From Candidatus Bathyarchaeia archaeon (GTDB lineage: Archaea; Thermoproteota; Bathyarchaeia; TCS64): a stretch of 25,614 nt of DNA. Below, piece after piece: positions 321 through 21,287 of this stretch. Below the pieces are notes generated by a model, which saw only the letters and a list, made by a program, of their open reading frames with translations, was not told where the DNA came from and did not search any database. The stretch lies in assembly GCA_050014495.1 (NCBI GenBank), contig JBEKDF010000039.1, positions 1-25,614 of the forward strand, in the 5' to 3' direction. A program made the position numbers and the translations under genes. How positions within the stretch are numbered: position 1 is the first letter of the stretch; every line of letters begins with the position of its first letter.

Positions 321-1307
321 TTATCCTTGGTAGGGAGGGGTCCATGGGAGGATGATCTTACCCGTCTTATCCATCTCCTCCCAGTACCCCCACTGCTCAT
401 CCACGGAGAGCTGCATATACTCAAGGGCCGCCTCGTTCTTCCATAGATGGGAGAACCTCCCCTGCTTCATGACGTACTCACTGATCCTCCTCCTAGTCGC
501 CGGCTTCGAAGTGAGTCTGAAGTGCCCATTCTCATACTCCCAAAGAGCCCACATCCCCGTGCTGACAGCCATCTGCCCGATCTCAATCGTCTCCTCGGGT
601 GGGAAGGCCCAACCCTTGGGGCAAGGTGCAAGCAACTGAACCAGCGAAGGCCTACCACTGGAGAGTGCTTTCCTTACCTTATTGACGAGATCAACAGGAT
701 TCGACACCGAGGCCGTGGCAACGTAGCCAATCGACGGGTGCACCGCGGCTATCAGGGCCATGTCCTTCTTAAGCCTCTCATTACCGATGGCCTTGACCTT
801 CCCCGAGGGGGTGAAGGTGGTAGAGGAGCCGAATGGCGTCGTGCTTGACGCCTGAACACCAGTGTTCGCGTACGACTCATTATCGTAGAGGAGGTAGAGT
901 AGGTGCGGATAATCATAGGTCAGACCCATGGATAGGCCACTCAGACCAATATCCGCGAACCCACCATCGCCACCGTAGACGACGACGTTCACATCCTCCA
1001 CCTTACGCTTCCCCTTAAACATGAGGGCCCTGAGAGCAGCCGCCGTACCGATGCCCGCCGCTCCACCGGCCCCAAGCTGGGTGTGATACCACGGAACCGC
1101 GTATGGAGATGACAGGAACTGGTGCCCATTCGCCACATACATGCAACCAGTCGGACCAAGCACAATGGTCTTAGGACCAGCCGCCTTCAACACCAACCTG
1201 TAACCCAGTGCAGGGCCACACCCAGCGCAGGTCCTGTGACCCGAGACGTAGTAGTCCTCAGCGGGTATCTCCGTAAGCTTCCTGATCAACCTAGGTTCCC
1301 CACTCAT
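321..1307 (-). CDS. 2-oxoacid:ferredoxin oxidoreductase beta subunit (PorB family, TPP-binding), oxalate oxidoreductase-like
   Basis: GHRTCAGCG, GPTGCMYVAN and APCPKGW supply the [4Fe-4S] cysteines. The TPP/Mg motif is GDGG...DNESYANTG. Start overlaps the alpha subunit stop (ATGA). Confidence 0.95.
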   Translation of the reverse strand: MSGEPRLIRKLTEIPAEDYYVSGHRTCAGCGPALGYRLVLKAAGPKTIVLGPTGCMYVANGHQFLSSPYAVPWYHTQLGAGGAAGIGTAAALRALMFKGKRKVEDVNVVVYGGDGGFADIGLSGLSMGLTYDYPHLLYLLYDNESYANTGVQASSTTPFGSSTTFTPSGKVKAIGNERLKKDMALIAAVHPSIGYVATASVSNPVDLVNKVRKALSSGRPSLVQLLAPCPKGWAFPPEETIEIGQMAVSTGMWALWEYENGHFRLTSKPATRRRISEYVMKQGRFSHLWKNEAALEYMQLSVDEQWGYWEEMDKTGKIILPWTPPYQG

Positions 1308-2548
1308 ACATCTTCACCCCTCACAGTTACCCACCTGACGGGCTTATCCACGCGACCCTTCCTCACAGACTCGATTAATGCCTGTATGGATTTCTCGAGC
1401 TCAGGGATAGTCATCTCCCTGCCCCCAGCGAATATGTAGTCCATGATCAGAGGCCTCTGCTCAGCCTCGTAGAAGGCGGCCCTGACATCATTGTATAGGA
1501 CGCTCCCATTGCCCGGTGAACCGAAACTGTAGGAAAAGTCGACCACGCCAATACCCTTCACCCCATCGAGGGCCTTGACAAGTTCCTCCGTCGGGAAGGG
1601 CCTCAGATACTTCAATCGCAGCGACCCCACCTTTACCCCGGACTCCCTCATCCTCTCGACGACGTACTCGACGTTTCTGGAATACGCCCCCATCGAAAGG
1701 ATGGCGTAGTCGGCGTCCTCCATCTGGGTCCCCTCGAAGAATGGAGGATACTCTCTCCCAATCGTGTCTCCCCAGGCCTTCCACGCCTCCGGGATGACGA
1801 TGTTCTTCGCCCTCTTCATCGCTGCGTCGATGGACTTCCTCTGCTCGGGTCCGATCAGGGATGGGGCGATGTGCATCGCCTTACTCACCGACTCATAGGC
1901 CGGGTCGAGTGGGTGAAGAGGCTTGTAAGGCGGCAGGAACTTGGCCACCTGCTCCTTCGTCGGCGGTGTAACGGGTGAGGCGACGTGGGTGATGGCCGCG
2001 CCATCCAAAGCCACGAAGTGAGGCAGAAGAACCCTCGGGTCCTCAGCTATCCTATACGCGACGAGGGTCATCTCAAGAGCCTCCTGTGGATCCTTCGACC
2101 ACTCCATGAGCCACCCGACGTCCCTGAACATGAAGGCATCATTCCACTCCATGCCGAAGTTCCCGGGATCATCTAGCGACCGACAGCCCACGATACCCAC
2201 AACCGGTAATTGGCCAAGAGCTGTGACGACCGCGGCTTCAGCCCCGTAGACCAATCCGGTACCCGAGCTCCCCACGAAGGTCCTAGCCCCGACAGCGGAG
2301 GCGTGCTTCACGACCTCGAACTGGCTGTGCTCAGAGTCGCAAACCAGGTACTCCGCGTAGAAGTCCCCACCCGCTATCATCGTCGCGAGGGCATTCATGA
2401 TGCCCGTGTAGGGCCTGATGGGATAGGCAGCGATCACATCGACGTCCGCAAGCTTCACGGCCTCTGCAACTGATCGAGCCCCAGTCCACACACGCCTCTT
2501 CTGAACAGCCTTCTGAACGGCGACCTGCGAAGATTTACTCATCATCAA
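1304..2548 (-). CDS. 2-oxoacid:ferredoxin oxidoreductase alpha subunit (PorA family), oxalate oxidoreductase-like
   Basis: YPIRPYTGIM (family YPITP motif with Arg), SEHS catalytic Glu, LDG..ITH and LRPFP. RBS GAGGTGA at 2550-2556, so the true start may be ATG 2545 or 2542. Confidence 0.95.
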   Translation of the reverse strand: MMMSKSSQVAVQKAVQKRRVWTGARSVAEAVKLADVDVIAAYPIRPYTGIMNALATMIAGGDFYAEYLVCDSEHSQFEVVKHASAVGARTFVGSSGTGLVYGAEAAVVTALGQLPVVGIVGCRSLDDPGNFGMEWNDAFMFRDVGWLMEWSKDPQEALEMTLVAYRIAEDPRVLLPHFVALDGAAITHVASPVTPPTKEQVAKFLPPYKPLHPLDPAYESVSKAMHIAPSLIGPEQRKSIDAAMKRAKNIVIPEAWKAWGDTIGREYPPFFEGTQMEDADYAILSMGAYSRNVEYVVERMRESGVKVGSLRLKYLRPFPTEELVKALDGVKGIGVVDFSYSFGSPGNGSVLYNDVRAAFYEAEQRPLIMDYIFAGGREMTIPELEKSIQALIESVRKGRVDKPVRWVTVRGEDV

Positions 2549-2553
2549 TCACC

Positions 2554-3672
2554 TCAGTAAGCGTACTCGATGAGCGCCTCCCGAATCGTCAGGAACTCCT
2601 CCTCATCCAGGCCCTCCAGAGCCTGTAACTCATGGGGCATCGAAATCGCCTTCGAGCCACACACCCTCGCGCAGATTCCACACCCCTTACAATACTCGTA
2701 GTTGACCTTGATCGGTTCATAGTCGATGGCGCCGTCGGGGCAGAAGACGTGGCATAGCTTACAATTAACACACTTCCCATAATCAATCACCGGCCTGAAC
2801 GTCCTAGCGAAGCTCGTTTTGAAGCCGATGTTCCTCTCAGAGACCTTCGGCCCAAACTCGATGAGTGCCGGGGCAATCTGCTCCCAGCTCGGCATGGCTT
2901 CGATCCTCTGCTCGTATGTTGGGGCATTCGCGGCCCTCTCCTTGAGGCTCATGTAGGCCTCCCTGTCCCACCAACCCTTCGCCCCTTTGAACGGCTTCGC
3001 CTCACCTAAGCTGGATTTTAGCTTGTACTGTTCACAGTCCTGAGCCTTGAGCGTGACATCGAGGCTATCCGCCTCCTCGTAAGCGGACCTGACTGCATCA
3101 ACTGAATCGGTCTTCCCCTCGGATTCAAGTGACTCAACCACGTCATCTATCGAGTATAGTGGTTCCATCGCCTTGGCGATTGCCCCTGTCATTCCCAGTG
3201 CGATGTTTTGACCGTATTTCTTGGCTCTTAGGGTGATGATCTTACCCTCCCAGTCCTGGGCGCAGCCGTACTTCCTCACAAGATTCAGGATCACACTCGG
3301 TTTTAGAGACGTGTTAACGACGAGCGATGCCTTTTTCTTAGCTCCATCCATGAGCAACGCCCTCTGAGACGTCGATTTAACGAGGAGAGACGAGTCCAAC
3401 ACCGCCACCGTGTCGAAGACGCTGCCCACTGGCTCGACCTCCTCTGGAAGGATCACCCTGATCCTCGGGTTACCGAAGACAGCATAGTAAATGAATGGCA
3501 GCTGAACCCTCTCCGGGCTATCATCGTACCTCATGTAGTAGAACGCCTCTCTCCCCGCGGCTACACCCGCTTGGGAGAGGGTTAACGCGATCTGGGAGGA
3601 GTGTGCAGTGTTAATGACTCCTCTACCGTGAATGGCAAGCCACGTCAATTCCTCCAGCTCAGGCGAAACCAT
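2554..3672 (-). CDS. Fused gamma-delta subunit of 2-oxoacid:ferredoxin oxidoreductase (OOR delta-chain-like, 2x[4Fe-4S])
   Basis: N-terminal PorC/gamma-like domain (IHGRG, LVVNT) plus a C-terminal ferredoxin domain with CVNCKLCHVFCP and CKGCGICARVC. First gene of the operon. Confidence 0.92.
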   Translation of the reverse strand: MVSPELEELTWLAIHGRGVINTAHSSQIALTLSQAGVAAGREAFYYMRYDDSPERVQLPFIYYAVFGNPRIRVILPEEVEPVGSVFDTVAVLDSSLLVKSTSQRALLMDGAKKKASLVVNTSLKPSVILNLVRKYGCAQDWEGKIITLRAKKYGQNIALGMTGAIAKAMEPLYSIDDVVESLESEGKTDSVDAVRSAYEEADSLDVTLKAQDCEQYKLKSSLGEAKPFKGAKGWWDREAYMSLKERAANAPTYEQRIEAMPSWEQIAPALIEFGPKVSERNIGFKTSFARTFRPVIDYGKCVNCKLCHVFCPDGAIDYEPIKVNYEYCKGCGICARVCGSKAISMPHELQALEGLDEEEFLTIREALIEYAY

Positions 3673-5394: not shown

Positions 5395-6633
5395 ATGCCA
5401 GATTATACAGTCGGACGAGACGAAACAGCCAGCGTAGGACGCGTTGAGGGAGACCTGAAGGTCAGTCGCAACGCAACAATAAAAGCAGAAAAGGATGGAA
5501 AAGTCGTCGTAACTGGAGACGTCGTTTTCGATGGAGGAGCAATGATCGACTGCAGCCTCGAATGCAACTCGATCGAAGTGAGAGCTCGCGCCCACACAGG
5601 GGGTACGATCAAGGTCCATGGAGATCTCACAGTACACCAGGTTGCCGACGTAGCCGACTCTTTGGAGGTGGTGGGAATAGCAAATGCGGACGGCTTCGAC
5701 GTAGGCGGTCATTTGACGGCCGAGTCAATTAATTCTAAGCGAATCCGTGTAGGAGGTCATCTCAAAGTCAAGAACTCCATAGAGGCAGAGATAGTTGATG
5801 TTGCCGGCCACCTTACAGTTTCAGGTAATGTCAAGCTTGTCGACCTCCACGTTGGTGGACATGCGGAGGTCGGCGGAGGCAGAATAAGTGGCACCATCCA
5901 GGTGAGGGGTAATTTCTCAGCGAGCTCAGGCCTCGACTACGGCGAGCTTCAGACCTACGGCCATGTGGTTCTTCCGGCTAACAGTAAGGGCGATAAAATG
6001 TCCGCATCAGGTAGAGTGGAATTCGGAGGGGATACATTTTGTAGAGTCCTTGACGTCAAGGGCGTGGTTAAGGTAGCCGGCAACTGTAACTCGGAAAGCA
6101 TCGAGGTCGGCGGCAAGTTGAACGTCGCAGGTTCTCTAAGTGTCTCCAAGGATCTCAAGATCTTTGGGGTGACTGAAGTATTGGGGCAGGTCAAGTGTGA
6201 GAGCATCATCGTGGGTGGTAGGCTCAAAGCTGCTAGCATTTTAGTGGACGAAGAGGCTGATATCGACGGTGAGATTGAAAGTATGCGTGGCCTAAAAGCG
6301 AAGTCCATAATTGTGAGAAGAGGGTCGAGGGTAGTCGGCCCATTGGTTGGGAAACAGATCGAGATCGGTAAGTCAACCGGAGCATGGAGATTTCCAATGG
6401 GTGGTAGGCTAGCCTCGAGTGGGAGGAACACAAGCGTGGAGGATGTGCATGGAGGAACGATAAGGTTGGGGCCCGCCTCGCGAGCTAAACTCGTGTTTGC
6501 TGAGATTCTCGAGATGGATGATGGCAGCCACGCCGACCAGGTTACTTACACGAATGCTCTCAAGCTACATATGAACAACCTCCTGAACAAGCCAACGATG
6601 AAGACATCCGAGCTTCCCGATCCTCCGCTCTAG
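5395..6633 (+). CDS. Bactofilin-like (polymer-forming cytoskeletal family) beta-helix repeat protein
   Basis: V/G/I-rich with 16-17 aa periodicity (VEGDLKV, VHGDLTV, VGGHLTA, VGGHLKV, VAGHLTV, VGGKLNV, VGGRLKA). No TM segment. TATA-like CTATAAA near 5363. Confidence 0.7.
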   Translation: MPDYTVGRDETASVGRVEGDLKVSRNATIKAEKDGKVVVTGDVVFDGGAMIDCSLECNSIEVRARAHTGGTIKVHGDLTVHQVADVADSLEVVGIANADGFDVGGHLTAESINSKRIRVGGHLKVKNSIEAEIVDVAGHLTVSGNVKLVDLHVGGHAEVGGGRISGTIQVRGNFSASSGLDYGELQTYGHVVLPANSKGDKMSASGRVEFGGDTFCRVLDVKGVVKVAGNCNSESIEVGGKLNVAGSLSVSKDLKIFGVTEVLGQVKCESIIVGGRLKAASILVDEEADIDGEIESMRGLKAKSIIVRRGSRVVGPLVGKQIEIGKSTGAWRFPMGGRLASSGRNTSVEDVHGGTIRLGPASRAKLVFAEILEMDDGSHADQVTYTNALKLHMNNLLNKPTMKTSELPDPPL

Positions 6634-13109: not shown

Positions 13110-13886
13110 ATGTCGGTCAACACAGGGCGTGTATTAAACGATAAATCGACCGACCCCAATTATGGCCTCGCACTAGACCACGCCCTACTCCTCCTAAACC
13201 CGAAGTCAAAGTACCCCGCAACGATTAGGTTCTGGAGAAACCCCTGCTCCGTGATACTGGGAAGAGGACAGACCCTAAGCGAAGAAGTTAACCAAACTTT
13301 TTGCAGGGAACACAAAATACCCATCGCGAGGAGAATAACCGGCGGTGGAACCGTCTATCACGACGAGGGAAACATCAACATAAGCCTCTTCATCCCAAAA
13401 AGCGCTCTCGAACAACCCAATGACGTAAAAAGAACAACTTCACTCTTCACGAACCTCTTAAAGGAAAGCATAGAGATGACCGGGATCAAAGAGATACATG
13501 TGGACGATTCCAATAACCTCCTCTACCAAGATCATAAAGTGTCCGGGGCAGCAGCCTACTTCACAAGGGAAACAATCCTTCACCACTCAACCCTACTGCT
13601 CTCAGTAGACCTCGAGAAACTTGAGGGGAGCCTAATACACAACATAGAACCACGTAGGGGTAGGAGTAAATACAAACCAACCACAAACCTCAAAGGTCTC
13701 CAATCTGAAAATTGGAAAAAAAAATACGTTAAACTATTAGGTGAAAAATTCAAATTAAATTTCCTACCTGGAAACTTAACACTGGAAGAAAGCGCCCTTG
13801 CTACCAAGCTGAGGAATACGATTTACATTAATCCTAATTGGATAAACAATGGAGAAAGGCCCATAGACCAAATGTCTGTTAACTAA
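13110..13886 (+). CDS. lplA: Lipoate-protein ligase family protein (catalytic domain only)
   Basis: IRFWRN..SVILGR.Q, RRITGGGTVYHDEGN, KVSGAA and LHHSTLL. Adjacent to the 2-oxoacid dehydrogenase genes. Confidence 0.9.
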   Translation: MSVNTGRVLNDKSTDPNYGLALDHALLLLNPKSKYPATIRFWRNPCSVILGRGQTLSEEVNQTFCREHKIPIARRITGGGTVYHDEGNINISLFIPKSALEQPNDVKRTTSLFTNLLKESIEMTGIKEIHVDDSNNLLYQDHKVSGAAAYFTRETILHHSTLLLSVDLEKLEGSLIHNIEPRRGRSKYKPTTNLKGLQSENWKKKYVKLLGEKFKLNFLPGNLTLEESALATKLRNTIYINPNWINNGERPIDQMSVN

Positions 13887-13960
13887 TGAACCTAATTAAG
13901 CCCCCGAAAAGGGTACAGTTTAAAAAAAAACATTACCAATTCTCTCTGAGGATCATCAAG

Positions 13961-15046
13961 ATGCTGAGTGACGAGTTTAACCCACTTGAGGGAAAGATGC
14001 TGCAGATAATCGGAGCCGACGGAACCGTAGATAAGAGGCTCGAGCCAAGCCTCGATGGTGACCTACTCCAACGTGCCTACCAGACGATGATCCTCGCCCG
14101 AGCAGCCGACGAGAAAGCGGTGAGACTCCAGAGACAGGGGAAAATCGGTGCCTATCCACCAAGCCGCGGCCAAGAAGCGAGCCAAATTGGCCCAGCCCTA
14201 GCCCTCGGACCAAATGATTGGATCATACCGGGATTCCGGGAGCTAACCGCACTAATATGGAGGGGAGTACCCCTACTCAACCTCTTCCTCTACTGGTCTG
14301 GAAACGAGGAGGGTAACGCTTACCCCGAGGGGGTAAAAGTGACGCCGGGTGTAATACCCGTTGGAGACCAGATCCCCCACGCAGTCGGTGTATCATACGC
14401 CTCAAAGCTAAGAGGCGAGAAGGTCGTCACCATGACATACTTCGGCGACGGCGGCTCCTCAGAGGGAAGCTTCCATGAAGGTCTAAACCTAGCCGGAGTC
14501 CTGAAGACACCAACCATCTTCATCTGTCAGAATAACCAATACGCCATCTCCCTCCCCCGATCAAAGCAAACAGCGTCTAAGACAATAGCACAAAAGGCAA
14601 TTGCATACGGATTCCCAGGAATAATGGTGGATGGCAACGATGTGCTCGCACTGTACGTAGCAGCGAAGGAAGCTGTAGACAGAGCCAGAGGAGGAGGAGG
14701 CCCAACACTCATCGAGTCCTACACCTACCGACTTGGAGATCACACAACCTCAGACGACGCGACAAGGTACCGTAACCAAGCTGAGTTGACGGAGTGGGAG
14801 GCAAAAGACCCATTGAATAGGTTCAGAGTCTACCTAGAAAACAAGGGGCTCTGGAATGAGGATAAGGAAAAAGCCTCAGTGGAAGAAGCCAAGAGTAGAG
14901 TAGATGAGGAATCTCAGAAAGCGCTAGACCATCCCCCACCCCAACTAGAAGACATATTCAAGTACACATACAGAGACTTGCCATCTGAGCTCCAGAATCA
15001 ACTGAAGTTTTTCAAAAAAGACCTCGAACAAGGAGGCTCCAACTAA
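13961..15046 (+). CDS. pdhA: Pyruvate/2-oxoacid dehydrogenase E1 alpha subunit
   Basis: LQRQGKIG.Y...GQEA, the TPP motif FGDGGSSEG...QNNQYAIS and YRLGDHTTSDD. ATG 13961 is preferred because of TTTAAAA near 13919. Confidence 0.94.
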   Translation: MLSDEFNPLEGKMLQIIGADGTVDKRLEPSLDGDLLQRAYQTMILARAADEKAVRLQRQGKIGAYPPSRGQEASQIGPALALGPNDWIIPGFRELTALIWRGVPLLNLFLYWSGNEEGNAYPEGVKVTPGVIPVGDQIPHAVGVSYASKLRGEKVVTMTYFGDGGSSEGSFHEGLNLAGVLKTPTIFICQNNQYAISLPRSKQTASKTIAQKAIAYGFPGIMVDGNDVLALYVAAKEAVDRARGGGGPTLIESYTYRLGDHTTSDDATRYRNQAELTEWEAKDPLNRFRVYLENKGLWNEDKEKASVEEAKSRVDEESQKALDHPPPQLEDIFKYTYRDLPSELQNQLKFFKKDLEQGGSN

Positions 15047-16023
15047 TGACAACCATGAACATGGTCCAAGCCATCGGTAACGCGTTAGCTGTAGAGATGG
15101 CGAGAGACCCCTCAGTAGTGGTACTAGGAGAAGACGTCGGCATCGACGGCGGAGTCTTCAGGGCCACCGAGGGGCTATACGAAAAATTTGGGCCAACGAG
15201 AGTCATCGACACACCATTATCAGAAGCCTGCATAGTAGGGGCATCCATTGGGATGGCCATGAACGGCCTCAAGCCTGTAGCCGAGATCCAGTTCCTAGGC
15301 TTCTCCTACTATACCCTAGACCAAATGATTTGCCACGCTGCCCGCATAAGGAACCGTTCAAGAGGACACCTAGGGGTTCCCCTTGTTCTCAGGACACCCT
15401 ATGGTGCCGGCGTAAAAGCCCTCGAGCATCACTCAGAGAGCACTGAGGCGCTCTACGCACAGATACCAGGATTAAAAGTAGTGGTGCCCGCAACCCCACG
15501 TGAGGCTAAGGGGCTACTCATCTCCGCCATCAGGGACCCCGACCCCGTGGTCTTCCTCGAGCCCACGCGAAACTATCGTCTCATAAAGGAGGACGTAGAG
15601 GAGGGAGACTTCACCATCCCCATCGGCCAAGCTAGAAAGGTGAAGGATGGTAAAGACGTCACAGTCATCGGCTGGGGTGCAATGATGCCTATCATACAGG
15701 ATGCTGCATTGAAAGCCGAAGCCAACGGTACCTCCGTGGAGATAATCGACCTACGTACCATTTCCCCAATGGACACAGATACGGTGATTGACTCCGTCAA
15801 AAAAACAGGCAGAGCCGTAGTAGTCCACGAAGCACCCAAGACAGGTGGAATCGGAGCAGAGATATCAGCGAGGATAGGTGAAAACGCCTTGTTATCCCTG
15901 AAGGCCCCAGTCGAAAGGGTCACAGCTCCAGATGTGACGGTGCCACTACCTAAGGGGGAGCACTTCTACTACGTTGACGCTGATAGGATACACAGAGCAA
16001 TTAGTAGGGTAATGACATTCTAA
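15046..16023 (+). CDS. pdhB: Pyruvate/2-oxoacid dehydrogenase E1 beta subunit
   Basis: LGEDVG..GGVFRAT.GL, DTPLSE, PVAEIQF, EHHSES and IDLRTISP. TAATG coupling to the alpha gene. Confidence 0.95.
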   Translation: MTTMNMVQAIGNALAVEMARDPSVVVLGEDVGIDGGVFRATEGLYEKFGPTRVIDTPLSEACIVGASIGMAMNGLKPVAEIQFLGFSYYTLDQMICHAARIRNRSRGHLGVPLVLRTPYGAGVKALEHHSESTEALYAQIPGLKVVVPATPREAKGLLISAIRDPDPVVFLEPTRNYRLIKEDVEEGDFTIPIGQARKVKDGKDVTVIGWGAMMPIIQDAALKAEANGTSVEIIDLRTISPMDTDTVIDSVKKTGRAVVVHEAPKTGGIGAEISARIGENALLSLKAPVERVTAPDVTVPLPKGEHFYYVDADRIHRAISRVMTF

Positions 16024-16033
16024 GGTGATATTG

Positions 16034-17290
16034 ATGGTAACTGAGTTTAGATTACCTGATCTAGGAGAGGGTATAACCGAGGGAGAGGTTAGGAAGTGGC
16101 TCATCAAAGAGGGTGACTCAGTCAAGAGAGATCAGTCACTCGCCGAGGTCGAGACCGACAAGGCCGTTGTCGAGATGCCGTCTCCAGCCGAGGGAAAGAT
16201 CCTCAAGATACATCACCCCGAGGGCGGGGTAGTCAAGGTCGGTGAGATCCTTGTCACGATCGGTGCTGAGGGAGAGACCGCTGGTATCCCCGAGGTAAGG
16301 AAACCATCGGTATCTGTTGTAGGAGAGCTACCTGAAGCCCCCGAGGAGAAATTATCCGAAGCTCCAATAATCAAACCGATCCAAGCAACTGAGCAAGAGA
16401 AAGCCATCCTCGCTCTCCCAGCTATACGCCGCCTAGCTGAGGAGCTTGGGGTAGACCTTGCCTCGATAAAAGGGTCAGGCCCAAATGGAAGAATAACTGA
16501 AGATGATGTACGAGGATCCAAGGAAACCCTCAAGGTATCTCGTCCTAGGATAGTTCCAAAGTTCGACGTTTATGGTTATGTAGAGAGAAAACCTATCCGA
16601 GGTATAAGGCGAACCACCGCGAAGAGGATGGTCGAGTCCTTAGCTAAGGCAGCTCAGGTTACTGCGATGGACCTTGTAGACATGACGGAACTCGTTGCAC
16701 TACGAGAACGGGAGAAGGTGACCCTCAAGGATGCCAAGGGAATACACCTCACATACATGCCATTCATCATCAAAGCTGTAGTGGAGGCTCTCAAGGAAAC
16801 CCCGATCATGAACTCCTCATACGACGAAGACTTAGAGGAAGTGATCATCAAGAAGTACTACAACTTAGGCTACGCTGTAGCCACCGAGGAAGGTTTACTT
16901 GTCCCAGTCGTCAAAGGAGCCGACCAGAAAAGCATAGTGGAGCTCGCCGAGGAAGTCGAGAGACTCACCGAGCTTTCCAACTCAAGGAAGATCGACTTAG
17001 GAGACTTGAAGGGTGGCACATTCACCATTACCAACTATGGTGTTTTCGGTGGAACCTATGGAACGCCCATAATAAACTACCCCGAGGTAGCGATTCTTGG
17101 AACAGGCAAGATAACCGACACGCCCCTAGTCATTGGAACAGAGATTAAGATAAGAAAAGTAATGTACATCAGTCTATCCTTCGACCACAGAGTCATGGAT
17201 GGCGCAGACGCAGCTAAATTCCTCAACAGCCTAAAGAAGTACCTCGAAGATCCCGAACTCCTACTCATCTCGATGGAGAGCGCTGGGTAA
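16034..17290 (+). CDS. pdhC: Dihydrolipoamide acyltransferase (E2) of the 2-oxoacid dehydrogenase complex
   Basis: One lipoyl domain (EVETDKAVVE), a peripheral subunit-binding domain (PAIRRLAEELGVDL..IKGSGPNGRI) and catalytic FDHRVMDG. RBS GGTGA before ATG 16034. Confidence 0.95.
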   Translation: MVTEFRLPDLGEGITEGEVRKWLIKEGDSVKRDQSLAEVETDKAVVEMPSPAEGKILKIHHPEGGVVKVGEILVTIGAEGETAGIPEVRKPSVSVVGELPEAPEEKLSEAPIIKPIQATEQEKAILALPAIRRLAEELGVDLASIKGSGPNGRITEDDVRGSKETLKVSRPRIVPKFDVYGYVERKPIRGIRRTTAKRMVESLAKAAQVTAMDLVDMTELVALREREKVTLKDAKGIHLTYMPFIIKAVVEALKETPIMNSSYDEDLEEVIIKKYYNLGYAVATEEGLLVPVVKGADQKSIVELAEEVERLTELSNSRKIDLGDLKGGTFTITNYGVFGGTYGTPIINYPEVAILGTGKITDTPLVIGTEIKIRKVMYISLSFDHRVMDGADAAKFLNSLKKYLEDPELLLISMESAG

Positions 17291-17303: not shown

Positions 17304-17594
17304 TCATCCACTCGCCCAGGTCTTAAGCTTCTCCAGGGACACCATCCCACATACCGCGTTGCCTGTTTTCTCGTTATAGAACGCTGGGACGCCGAGGTCC
17401 CCCCCACACGCCTTCTTTATTACTTCCCCGTAACCACGCATCACCTTTGCGTTATCCTCACTATGCCAAACCTCTAGCTCCGTTATTTTCTTCCCCGTTT
17501 CGGCCTCGAACTGTTCGACCACCGGGCGAAGCCGCTTACAGTGAACACACTCCTTTCCGCTGAACCAGATCAGACGATCAACTGAGCCACTCAT
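17304..17594 (-). CDS. Thioredoxin/glutaredoxin-like protein
   Basis: CVHC motif and GVP cis-Pro loop, 96 aa. ATGA overlap with the upstream FTR gene. Confidence 0.88.
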   Translation of the reverse strand: MSGSVDRLIWFSGKECVHCKRLRPVVEQFEAETGKKITELEVWHSEDNAKVMRGYGEVIKKACGGDLGVPAFYNEKTGNAVCGMVSLEKLKTWASG

Positions 17595-18055
17595 TGTTCA
17601 TCCCTCTTAACGTATAATCCACACCAACACTCACCGCGTTCGGCGTATGTCTGTTGTACTTGGAAGTTGCAGGGACAAATAAGCTTAAGATCTTGGATGA
17701 AATCCCCCTGTGCCAGCCTACAGGGGCAATATCTAAGTCCATGGGCTTTTTGATTCGATAAAACTCCTTCGGCAAGTCCTTCAACCATTTCCTTGTCCTC
17801 GACAAGTTTGTACTCGTCACTGATCTTCGCGAATCCCTTCCAAGCCTCAATTATGGCGCCAGTCGATGTAAGTGCCCCTCCTCTGTCGCCTATTATCTTA
17901 AGCGCTTCATCCCTGTCGACTTGTACAAAGGCTCCTCGGGCTCCACATGTGGGACATATGAGGGGTGGACCAGCTCCGTAATGAAGGTCGTTGCAGACGT
18001 GACACCTCCAGAGGCGTTTCACACTGATATCATACTCTTTCTTCAAGACACTCAT
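17591..18055 (-). CDS. Rubredoxin-like domain fused to a ferredoxin-thioredoxin reductase catalytic domain
   Basis: WRCHVC...CPTCG metal knuckles, then YCPCR, ICPCNF and ECWCGLYV FTR motifs. RBS GGAG before ATG 18055. Confidence 0.9.
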   Translation of the reverse strand: MSVLKKEYDISVKRLWRCHVCNDLHYGAGPPLICPTCGARGAFVQVDRDEALKIIGDRGGALTSTGAIIEAWKGFAKISDEYKLVEDKEMVEGLAEGVLSNQKAHGLRYCPCRLAQGDFIQDLKLICPCNFQVQQTYAERGECWCGLYVKRDEQ

Positions 18056-18221
18056 ATCAACAACTCCATTGTAATTGATCTTAATTCTCAGGTTAATTCT
18101 GAAAATCGTAATGGAAAAACCTACGTCTTTTCCTACTAAAAAAAGTGATAAGGAATGATTGATGTTCACGGATTCCCACAAGATAAACGAGAGATTCCTC
18201 TGAAATCTCCGGAGTGATTAG

Positions 18222-19570: not shown

Positions 19571-20290
19571 ATGGCTAGAACAGAGAAAGAAATAATCGAG
19601 AGACTCGAAAAGATCGACACTCCAACAATAAGTAACGTCGTGGCCACCTATCCCCGCTCCGACAACTGCATGAAGCTCTACGATGCTTGGTATGGGGAAT
19701 GGTACACCGACTCAACAATCCATTGCGTTTACCCCGAGATGGGGCCCAAGGTCGGCTACGTCGCGACAGTCGTGTTCTGTGAACGCTCAGAGAAATTCAC
19801 TGGCATGGGCAGATGGGTTCTCCCCGAACACATCGACCAGACCAAGAAACCCATAGTCCTCGTGGCTGAGCAACAGTTCCCAAGAGAACTTGATAATAGA
19901 GTCGGCTTATTCGGAGAGATAATGACCACACAATACAAGGCCTTGGGGGTAATAGGCGTCATAACAAACGGCCCCATGAGAGACATAGACGCGATAAAAC
20001 CCCTCAACTTCCAATACTACTCAACAGGGGTCACTCCCGGACATGGTGACTTCATAGTCAAGGCAGTAGGGGTACCAGTCAAAGTCGGTGGTATGACCGT
20101 TATGCCCGGGGACATGGTCCATATGGACATGCACGGGGCTGTCAAGTTCCCCGCTGATAAGATGGGGGAAGTCCTCGAGCGAGCGGAGAAACTACTCGAA
20201 TCCGAGGGTGCTACAATGAAGATCTACAAGGATCCAGAGTTCAGCTTAAAGAAATGGAAGCAAACCATAGAAGGAAACAAGACCTATTGA
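19571..20290 (+). CDS. RraA / HMG aldolase family protein
   Basis: DTPTISN, VGYVAT, FGEIMT, GVITNGPMRD and VGGMTVMPGDMVHMDMHG. Confidence 0.88.
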   Translation: MARTEKEIIERLEKIDTPTISNVVATYPRSDNCMKLYDAWYGEWYTDSTIHCVYPEMGPKVGYVATVVFCERSEKFTGMGRWVLPEHIDQTKKPIVLVAEQQFPRELDNRVGLFGEIMTTQYKALGVIGVITNGPMRDIDAIKPLNFQYYSTGVTPGHGDFIVKAVGVPVKVGGMTVMPGDMVHMDMHGAVKFPADKMGEVLERAEKLLESEGATMKIYKDPEFSLKKWKQTIEGNKTY

Positions 20291-20300
20291 GGTATGTGCG

Positions 20301-21287
20301 ATGAAAGTACTATTCGTAGCAGGCCGCTGGGCCCAGGATATTCAAAACTCCAAGAGACTCAAGGAACTTAGAAAAATAGTCGACGTGGAGATATCCGAGA
20401 TAGGAGACGAGAATACTCTCCTGAGCAAGATAAATGGTGTCGACGTCATCATAACAGGAGGCCCAATCACGGCCCCCGTGATCAATGCAGCTGATAAACT
20501 GAAAATGATCCAGACCACAAGCGTCGGTTACGAGTACATTGATGAAGCTGCTGCATCAGCTAATGGAGTAATAATCTGTAACGTGGCTGGCGTAAACGCG
20601 AACAGCGTCGTCGAGCTCGCTTTTGGTATGATCCTCGACATAGCCAGAAGAATAACGGCCCATAATCGCCTGATGCGTGACGGTGGCTGGGCCCGCGTCG
20701 ACATCGAAAGACAGGTCGAGATCAGAAACAGCACCATCGGAATAATAGGACTAGGAGCCATCGGTAGCAGGATGGCCCAGTTCGCCAAACTAGCCTTCAA
20801 CATGAATATTCTCACATACGACCCATACATAACGGAGGCGAGAGCCCAACAATTCAACGCTGAACTCGTCGACCTAGAAACCCTACTTAAGAAATCCGAT
20901 ATAGTCACAGTTCACGTCCCATTGAATGAGGAGACACGCCACATGATCGGCGAAAAGGAGCTGAGTCTACTCAAGCCCACAGCTATATTCGTCTCAACCG
21001 CGAGGGGGCCGGTAGTCGATGAAAAAGCCCTCATCAAGGTCCTACAAGGGAAGCGCATTAGTGGCGCTTGTCTCGATGTTTACGAGGTTGAACCTCTCCC
21101 AAAGGATAGTCCGTTAAGAACTCTTGACAACATTACACTAGTCCCACACATAGGCAGCACACCTGGAATTATGGTCCAGATGCGCGAAACAGCTGTTTGG
21201 AACGTCATCAGAGTTGCGAAAGGACAGTCACCAATGAACATCCAGACACTCAAACTCTACTATACAAGTCATAAATGGCAAAAATAG
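20301..21287 (+). CDS. D-isomer-specific 2-hydroxyacid dehydrogenase (PGDH/glyoxylate reductase-like, no ACT domain)
   Basis: GIIGLGAIG Rossmann motif, YDP (NAD-type), and the TARG / DVYEVEP / PHIG catalytic Arg-Glu-His. Confidence 0.93.
   Translation: MKVLFVAGRWAQDIQNSKRLKELRKIVDVEISEIGDENTLLSKINGVDVIITGGPITAPVINAADKLKMIQTTSVGYEYIDEAAASANGVIICNVAGVNANSVVELAFGMILDIARRITAHNRLMRDGGWARVDIERQVEIRNSTIGIIGLGAIGSRMAQFAKLAFNMNILTYDPYITEARAQQFNAELVDLETLLKKSDIVTVHVPLNEETRHMIGEKELSLLKPTAIFVSTARGPVVDEKALIKVLQGKRISGACLDVYEVEPLPKDSPLRTLDNITLVPHIGSTPGIMVQMRETAVWNVIRVAKGQSPMNIQTLKLYYTSHKWQK

Follow-up and report, generated by a model that had tools for sequence, protein, structure and literature searches.

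The closest described system and the operon

To our knowledge, Moorella is the sole source of a characterised oxalate oxidoreductase (OOR), whose mechanism is explained by a switch based on Asp116. The enzyme of Moorella (Neomoorella) thermoacetica, MtOOR (EC 1.2.7.10; PDB 5C4I, 5EXD, 5EXE; NCBIfam NF045790–NF045792), is the closest characterised relative of the system considered here, a three-gene operon on the minus strand of a 25,614-nucleotide stretch of DNA from a Candidatus Bathyarchaeia archaeon (contig JBEKDF010000039.1; this whole stretch is referred to as the window). The available text of PMC5020499 names Arg31, Arg109 and Asp116 and attributes a bait-and-switch mechanism to Arg31 and Asp116 in concert with a plug loop. 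From the combined comparisons it appears fairly probable that the operon encodes a three-chain oxidoreductase with thiamine pyrophosphate (TPP) and [4Fe–4S] clusters, which would convert oxalate into 2 CO2 without coenzyme A (CoA) and hand two low-potential electrons to ferredoxin. Oxalate as the substrate is a choice that we infer mainly from the gene neighbours of related operons and not from the sequence motifs described below. By its sequence, the enzyme is part of an archaeal sister branch, denoted Asn/His, which is predicted to work like OOR but lies outside OOR proper.

The open reading frames (ORFs) follow each other in the order gamma-delta, alpha, beta. The fused gamma-delta subunit (domains III–V, 372 aa) is encoded at 2554..3672, the alpha subunit (domains I–II, 412 aa, protein P0001) at 1304..2542, and the beta subunit (domain VI, 328 aa) at 321..1307. 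The ORF finder puts the alpha start at a TTG codon (2548; ORF 1304–2548), and the likely start is the ATG at 2542. The alpha and beta genes overlap via ATGA, and a GAGGTGA motif read from the sequence overlaps the gamma-delta stop codon. An AlphaFold model of gamma-delta (predicted local distance difference test, pLDDT, 87.7) was compared using Foldseek, where MtOOR chains occupied ranks 1–8 with 345–372 aligned columns, i.e. over nearly the whole length. The predicted fold thus confirms that domains III–V are fused in one chain. A sequence-only reading of this DNA had already described the gene order, the YPIRP motif of alpha and the motifs of beta, all of which are present in the ORFs. The same reading regarded the fused chain as a hallmark of OOR; this feature turned out not to be diagnostic, as gamma and delta are encoded by two genes in the OOR-proper locus L186 (L186:3282-4345). 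That locus also has a GntR gene on its upstream side and an OxlT gene on its downstream side.

With PDB sequences as the reference set, the best match of alpha was MtOOR alpha at 302.6 bits, compared to 192 bits for the pyruvate ferredoxin oxidoreductase (PFOR) of M. acetivorans, and beta scored 326.9 bits against MtOOR beta and 226.9 bits against the same PFOR. MtOOR is the top sequence match for all three chains and the top fold match for alpha and gamma-delta, and the OOR models rank first in NCBIfam for all three chains. The alpha chain is 41% identical to the N. thermoacetica OOR alpha chain (P0394). Second-best are the four-chain archaeal PFOR/VOR enzymes (M. acetivorans PFOR, PDB 9BT4; NF040682, NF008819). 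These share the fold of a 2-oxoacid:ferredoxin oxidoreductase (OFOR), the domain set and the gene order, but differ from the window enzyme in having YPITP, a P-loop that reads GRGGQG and gamma and delta as two chains, and in depending on CoA, at an alpha identity of about 30–34%. The window enzyme misses the PorA/PorB/VorA/VorB cut-offs (score/cut-off: NF040682 293/550, NF008819 297/405, NF008818 269/405).

Conserved and altered active-site residues

The YPIRP motif of alpha (2411..2425, minus strand as for all operon features), which the available text of PMC5020499 describes for MtOOR, places Arg43 at the position of MtOOR Arg31, and Arg121 (2180..2182) aligns with MtOOR Arg109. Equivalents of Glu59, Asp112, Phe117 and beta Asn143 are likewise retained, together with all cluster cysteines. 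The counterpart of Asn143 is Asn148 in DNESYANTG (858..884), the end of the TPP/Mg motif. Glu59 of alpha and Asn143 of beta are presumably active-site residues. The beta chain further contains GHRTCAGCGPAL and GPTGCMYVAN; these stretches, and DNESYANTG, are identical in MtOOR beta. Arginine occupies the YPIRP position in 120/120 homologues. A motif scan of the host's 3.1-Mb genome (completeness 96%, contamination 7.5%) found YPIRP once. Seven other POR-like alpha genes were identified there at 30–34% identity, six of them with (Y/F)PITP and the seventh unmatched by the scan pattern, and all seven paralogous betas carry DNEAYMNTG. As YPIRP is single in the host scan and the paralogues carry other motifs, the combination found in the operon is not a matter of chance.

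Besides these common features, the window enzyme differs from MtOOR at several positions that had escaped the sequence-only reading. Asn128 (2159..2161) stands at the position of the switch residue Asp116, His224 (1871..1873) aligns with MtOOR Gln211, which we take to be an active-site residue, and the loop bearing Glu154 is absent. The register of His224 is the same in HMMER and HHalign, and a pattern count gave His in 115/120 homologues (5 unmatched by the pattern); MAFFT aligned this segment differently and put Glu opposite Gln211, and an AlphaFold model of alpha alone gave pLDDT <50 in the active-site loops, so that the model does not settle the register. The Glu154 loop of domain III, presumably the plug loop of MtOOR, is seen in MtOOR (5c4i_B) and in the gamma chains of the OOR-proper loci L186 and L189, and the corresponding segment is much shorter in the window gamma-delta. 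Further differences are Trp in place of His121, a clade-specific His-Gln-Phe segment following YVAN in beta, which includes His62, and a gamma-delta chain with only ~23% identity and new insertions. The putative cationic arginine bait is kept and the acidic switch is lost.

CoA is bound by the P-loop and by domain III according to the available texts of PMC8091585 and of PMC12337175 and PMC13768988, respectively. In the gamma-delta chain, a degenerate P-loop, GRGVIN (residues 16–21; 3610..3627), replaces GRGGQG. The P-loop of MtOOR is degenerate as well and reads ARGVVM; five host paralogues keep GRGGQG. Among the 104 gamma-delta matches of the clade GRGGQG was found in none, with 18 of the 104 lacking the N-terminal motif. 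Because the P-loop is degenerate, the enzyme is probably independent of CoA, and the earlier suggestion to this effect is judged to be probably right.

Phylogenetic placement and distribution

The phylogeny was calculated with IQ-TREE for 43 alpha sequences (support given as bootstrap/SH-aLRT), with 13 unnamed POR-like proteins and host paralogues as outgroup and no characterised POR, VOR or KGOR included. The YPIRP chains form a superclade (100/100) set apart from the POR-like chains and divided in three. The first group is OOR proper (100/99), which excludes the window and has as its representative P0280, a protein in the same 90% cluster as the N. thermoacetica protein. The second group is of the Ala/Ser type (99/95), and the third contains the window (100/100) as sister to the Ala type (100/98). 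A quick tree of 99 rows agrees with this topology. The claim that the operon is no ordinary PFOR is borne out by this result. Assignment to the OOR clade was correct at the level of the superclade: in this alpha tree the chain falls outside the POR-like sequences, but as a sister to OOR proper and not within it.

The Ala-type sister clade is uncharacterised and occurs in Acidobacteriota, Chloroflexota and some Nitrososphaerota. It has the same gene order as the window enzyme, YPIRP, a degenerate P-loop and no Asp116. The two clades differ in the residue at position 116, which is Ala (Ser in L099) as compared to Asn, in the retention of Gln211 as compared to His, and in the residue after the beta Asn, which is mostly Asp (ANTD) as compared to ANTG. 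Neighbours of the OFA family were found in 5/44 Ala-type loci. Archaeal examples of the switch-loop variants are a Ser-type (L099:1510-2721) and an Ala-type gene (L097:1492-2694), both with Gln kept. Loci L094 and L096 hold basal Asn/His members that retain His121.

Of 174 GTDB loci, the best 80 include 36 of the window group, and every one of these 36 is titled as archaeal. They derive from Bathyarchaeia, Thermoprotei (Fervidicoccaceae, Desulfurococcales, Sulfolobales), Thermoplasmatota and a few others, and the closest named relatives are Bathyarchaeia metagenome-assembled genomes with 90–92% alpha identity. In one close relative (L001:8001-9240), two overlapping frames make up the alpha gene, which is broken near its end by a frameshift or a sequencing error. 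Within the host's class the distribution is patchy, with matches in 19/401 sampled genomes (E 1e-80), three of the 19 being Ala/Ser-type by score or motif. The clade includes a protein of the cultured Fervidicoccus fontis (P0104, WP_014558070.1). A literature search covering titles and abstract openings returned no description of an archaeal OOR, including Bathyarchaeia and Fervidicoccus; a 2016 OFOR phylogeny may already list archaeal OOR-group sequences.

The names given to close relatives in databases (JGI and NCBI) are those of pyruvate ferredoxin oxidoreductase, just as the sequence-only reading had expected of automated annotation. Taken at face value, these names point to an ordinary oxidoreductase for pyruvate or 2-ketoacids that depends on CoA and whose motif has diverged. 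The missing Glu154 loop could be read in the same direction: if this loop plugs the channel, as we assume, the channel may be open to CoA. Such an enzyme is difficult to reconcile with the degenerate P-loop in all matches, with Arg in place of Thr and with the separation from POR-like chains in the alpha tree. Moreover, the host already has seven POR-like alpha genes, and the gene is patchy in its class. We regard this explanation as very improbable.

Gene neighbours and the choice of substrate

The neighbourhood was evaluated for 116 clade loci (36 from GTDB and 80 of 322 metagenomic loci; partly redundant), 71 of which have at least 600 bases upstream and 79 downstream. A transporter of the OFA family lies within 1 kb in 10/116 loci. 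The transporter of L010 scores above the TIGR04259 cut-off and that of L025 above the TIGR00890 cut-off, Arg272 and Lys355 of OxlT are retained in the five transporters from named genomes, and of five genomes tested, four have the adjacent gene as their sole TIGR04259 match and the fifth is without any match. For comparison, four OOR-proper loci were inspected. L186 and L189 show a TIGR04259 transporter 67% identical to that of L010, followed by an extended short-chain dehydrogenase/reductase (SDR) gene, and L187 and L188 have other transporter genes. The same extended SDR with shared motifs flanks the clade operon in L008, L021, L027, L145, L169, L196 and partly L094, as it does in the OOR-proper loci L186, L189 and partly L187. 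As an observation in its own right, this SDR family accompanies operons of the OOR type and OFA transporters in bacteria and archaea alike (L189:6693-7634, L021:5115-6038, L008:4904-5806, L196:3023-3946).

A second recurrent neighbour is a gene resembling gamma-glutamyltransferase (GGT), found directly upstream and co-oriented in 18/116 clade loci and inverted at a distance of 1.8 kb in two. Its best PDB match is 6j3a (617 aa; 441 bits), an entry that we infer to be LmbA2991 from the matching length and the start of the small subunit. The available text on LmbA2991 (PMC5519988) describes a hydrolysis with C–C cleavage that releases oxalic acid as co-product and calls the native role unclear. 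Carbamate kinase is encoded 2–5.3 kb away in 5/116 loci, all five of which also carry the GGT-like gene.

These neighbours bear on the main rival explanation, i.e. a CoA-independent enzyme acting on another small oxalyl-type acid such as oxamate, glyoxylate or mesoxalate. Oxamate would yield CO2 and carbamate, or carbamoyl phosphate. The clade-wide changes in the active site (Asp to Asn, Gln to His, the His-Gln-Phe segment of beta, loss of the Glu154 loop) are in line with a different substrate, as is the carbamate kinase, and the Ntn-hydrolase neighbour points toward oxalyl-amide chemistry. Conversely, both arginines are kept, which would fit a dianion, and the transporter and SDR genes are common to the loci of OOR proper. 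The carbamate kinase loci, all with the GGT-like gene, look like lineage synteny, and an upstream oxamate hydrolase would deliver oxalate, not oxamate. Neighbours of the Ldh_2 family are closer to sulfolactate dehydrogenase than to AllD. We consider a substrate other than oxalate unlikely on balance, albeit worth keeping in view. A specific version, in which the Asn/His clade would be an oxamate:ferredoxin oxidoreductase whose carbamoyl-TPP adduct gives carbamate or, if phosphate takes part, carbamoyl phosphate from which carbamate kinase makes ATP, is clearly improbable. If true, it would represent an undescribed energy-conserving end step of purine or oxalyl-amide breakdown in anaerobic archaea.

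One candidate assignment, a purine/oxamate cluster, was rejected. The GGT-like neighbour scored 66 bits against 5hft, presumably HpxW, vs 441 bits against 6j3a, and the Ldh_2 neighbours are not AllD since sulfolactate dehydrogenase scores higher, so that no purine cluster was seen. Two other neighbourhoods were noted. In a close relative, a DHDPS-family aldolase fused to formaldehyde-activating enzyme (Fae) is encoded 1.7 kb downstream of the operon (L101:9892-11385), and a formate–tetrahydrofolate ligase gene lies a few kb downstream in the Bathyarchaeia loci L003, L026, L029, L033 and L105, four of them with a FolD-like gene, which may be lineage synteny.

Several observations weigh against the assignment of the operon to oxalate oxidation. 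At the level of family models, all three chains miss the NCBIfam OOR cut-offs (NF045790 93/230 for gamma-delta, NF045791 354/500 for alpha, NF045792 364.6/590 for beta; in bits), which is the second respect in which the proposed OOR-clade membership did not hold. In the control locus L181, alpha exceeds the NF045791 cut-off at 586.6 and beta falls short of the NF045792 cut-off at 562.5. In the active site, the position of Asp116 is held by Asn in 117 and Ser in 2 of the 120 homologues (1 unmatched), while Asp is found in 119/119 OOR-proper proteins; the Asn count was taken from the protein search, since Asn at position 116 was part of the pattern with which loci were searched. Gln211, replaced in the window alpha, is equally invariant in OOR proper (119/119), and SG(A/S)EG of the Glu154 loop occurs in 0/104 clade gamma-delta matches. 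The available text of PMC5020499 describes Asp116 as important to the mechanism of MtOOR.

Further points against come from the genomic context. Arg272 and Lys355 are essential to oxalate transport, yet they are conserved across the OFA family according to the available text of PMC10070484 and, for this reason, are no proof of oxalate. The transporter links derive from about two lineages, the loci being partly redundant, and the adjacency of the GGT-like gene is probably a single event or lineage. Its LmbA2991-like homologue is present in 10/13 OOR-like vs 33/58 other genomes of the host family and in 0/6 OOR-like genomes outside the family, i.e. without clear enrichment. The transporter, SDR and GGT-like neighbours are all missing beside the operon of genome G762 (L195), whose protein is of the F. 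fontis type (100% to P0104). No OxlT-like gene lies beside the operon within the window, and no OxlT-like match was obtained in the host at 1e-6, or in the host and 70 other family genomes at E 1e-40.

Proposed reaction and role in the host

A reaction sequence for oxalate oxidation can be transferred from MtOOR, based on the overall reaction given in the available text of PMC5020499 and on the intermediates named in PDB titles. Two arginines would bind the oxalate dianion, and the TPP ylide would attack one of the carboxyl carbons, upon which the first CO2 would leave. Two electrons would then pass through three [4Fe–4S] clusters to ferredoxin, and the second CO2 would be released from a carboxy-TPP adduct. 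Lacking both the Asp116 switch and the Glu154 loop, the enzyme would have to rely on other residues for proton transfer and product release. The clade-conserved residues alpha His224 or beta His62 are the most plausible replacements for Asp116, though this suggestion is speculative. A clade that spans Bathyarchaeia, Thermoprotei and Thermoplasmata and has the arginine bait but no acidic switch constitutes a natural test of the need for the switch, and the cultured F. fontis member makes the clade testable now. If oxalate is oxidised, sediment and hot-spring archaea would be able to use a common acid of plants and fungi anaerobically and without CoA, by a further route that is presently annotated as pyruvate oxidoreductase.

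The tetrahydromethanopterin-dependent Wood–Ljungdahl pathway of the host would take up the CO2 and the reduced ferredoxin. Matches to cdhC, mch and fwdA above cut-off, together with the lack of oxc or frc above cut-off in the host genome, fit such a sink. Oxalate may arise inside the cell through an LmbA2991-like hydrolase, whose gene at C18:15048-16781 shares 57% identity with its counterpart beside the operon of L006. This hydrolase gene and the missing OxlT match in the host family would also suit a scenario in which the same chemistry mainly clears internally made oxalate or runs reductively, from 2 CO2 to oxalate, and does not serve growth on imported oxalate; the missing switch, which we take to drive decarboxylation, could be seen likewise. 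Against this, importers adjoin the operons of relatives, and a reductive direction is unlikely in vivo because the oxidation of oxalate is strongly favoured thermodynamically. Overall, this variant seems very improbable.

Further features of the operon and the window

The gamma-delta chain contains ferredoxin domain V (2659..2772; Pfam Fer4) with two CxxCxxCxxxC motifs (C301–C338), predicted to bind two [4Fe–4S] clusters; the eight cysteines are invariant in 47/47 aligned sequences. In beta (within 321..1307), the four cluster cysteines are residues 27, 30, 55 and 229. A scan for promoters and terminators remained at chance level (3 vs 2.9 and 4 vs 2.4). The genes next to the operon in the window encode a membrane protein without assigned family, DedA and a P-type ATPase, and are uninformative on the substrate.

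At a distance of 16 kb, an RraA/HMG-aldolase-like gene and a D-2-hydroxyacid dehydrogenase gene form a tandem (19571-21287, plus strand); the dehydrogenase stays below the cut-offs of the glyoxylate reductase and PGDH models. The pair could touch on C2–C3 acid metabolism; it is absent from the recurrent neighbour clusters of related operons and is left out of the system as described here. A lipoate–protein ligase gene is followed by what the sequence suggests to be E1 alpha, E1 beta and E2 genes of a 2-oxoacid dehydrogenase complex (13110-17290, plus strand). This apparent complex coexists in the host with eight OFOR alpha genes of the present kind. On the minus strand, a rubredoxin-like domain is fused to a ferredoxin–thioredoxin reductase catalytic domain (17591-18181), adjoining a small CxxC protein (17304-17594). 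Finally, a bactofilin-like repeat protein of 412 aa is encoded at 5395-6633 (plus strand) in this archaeon.

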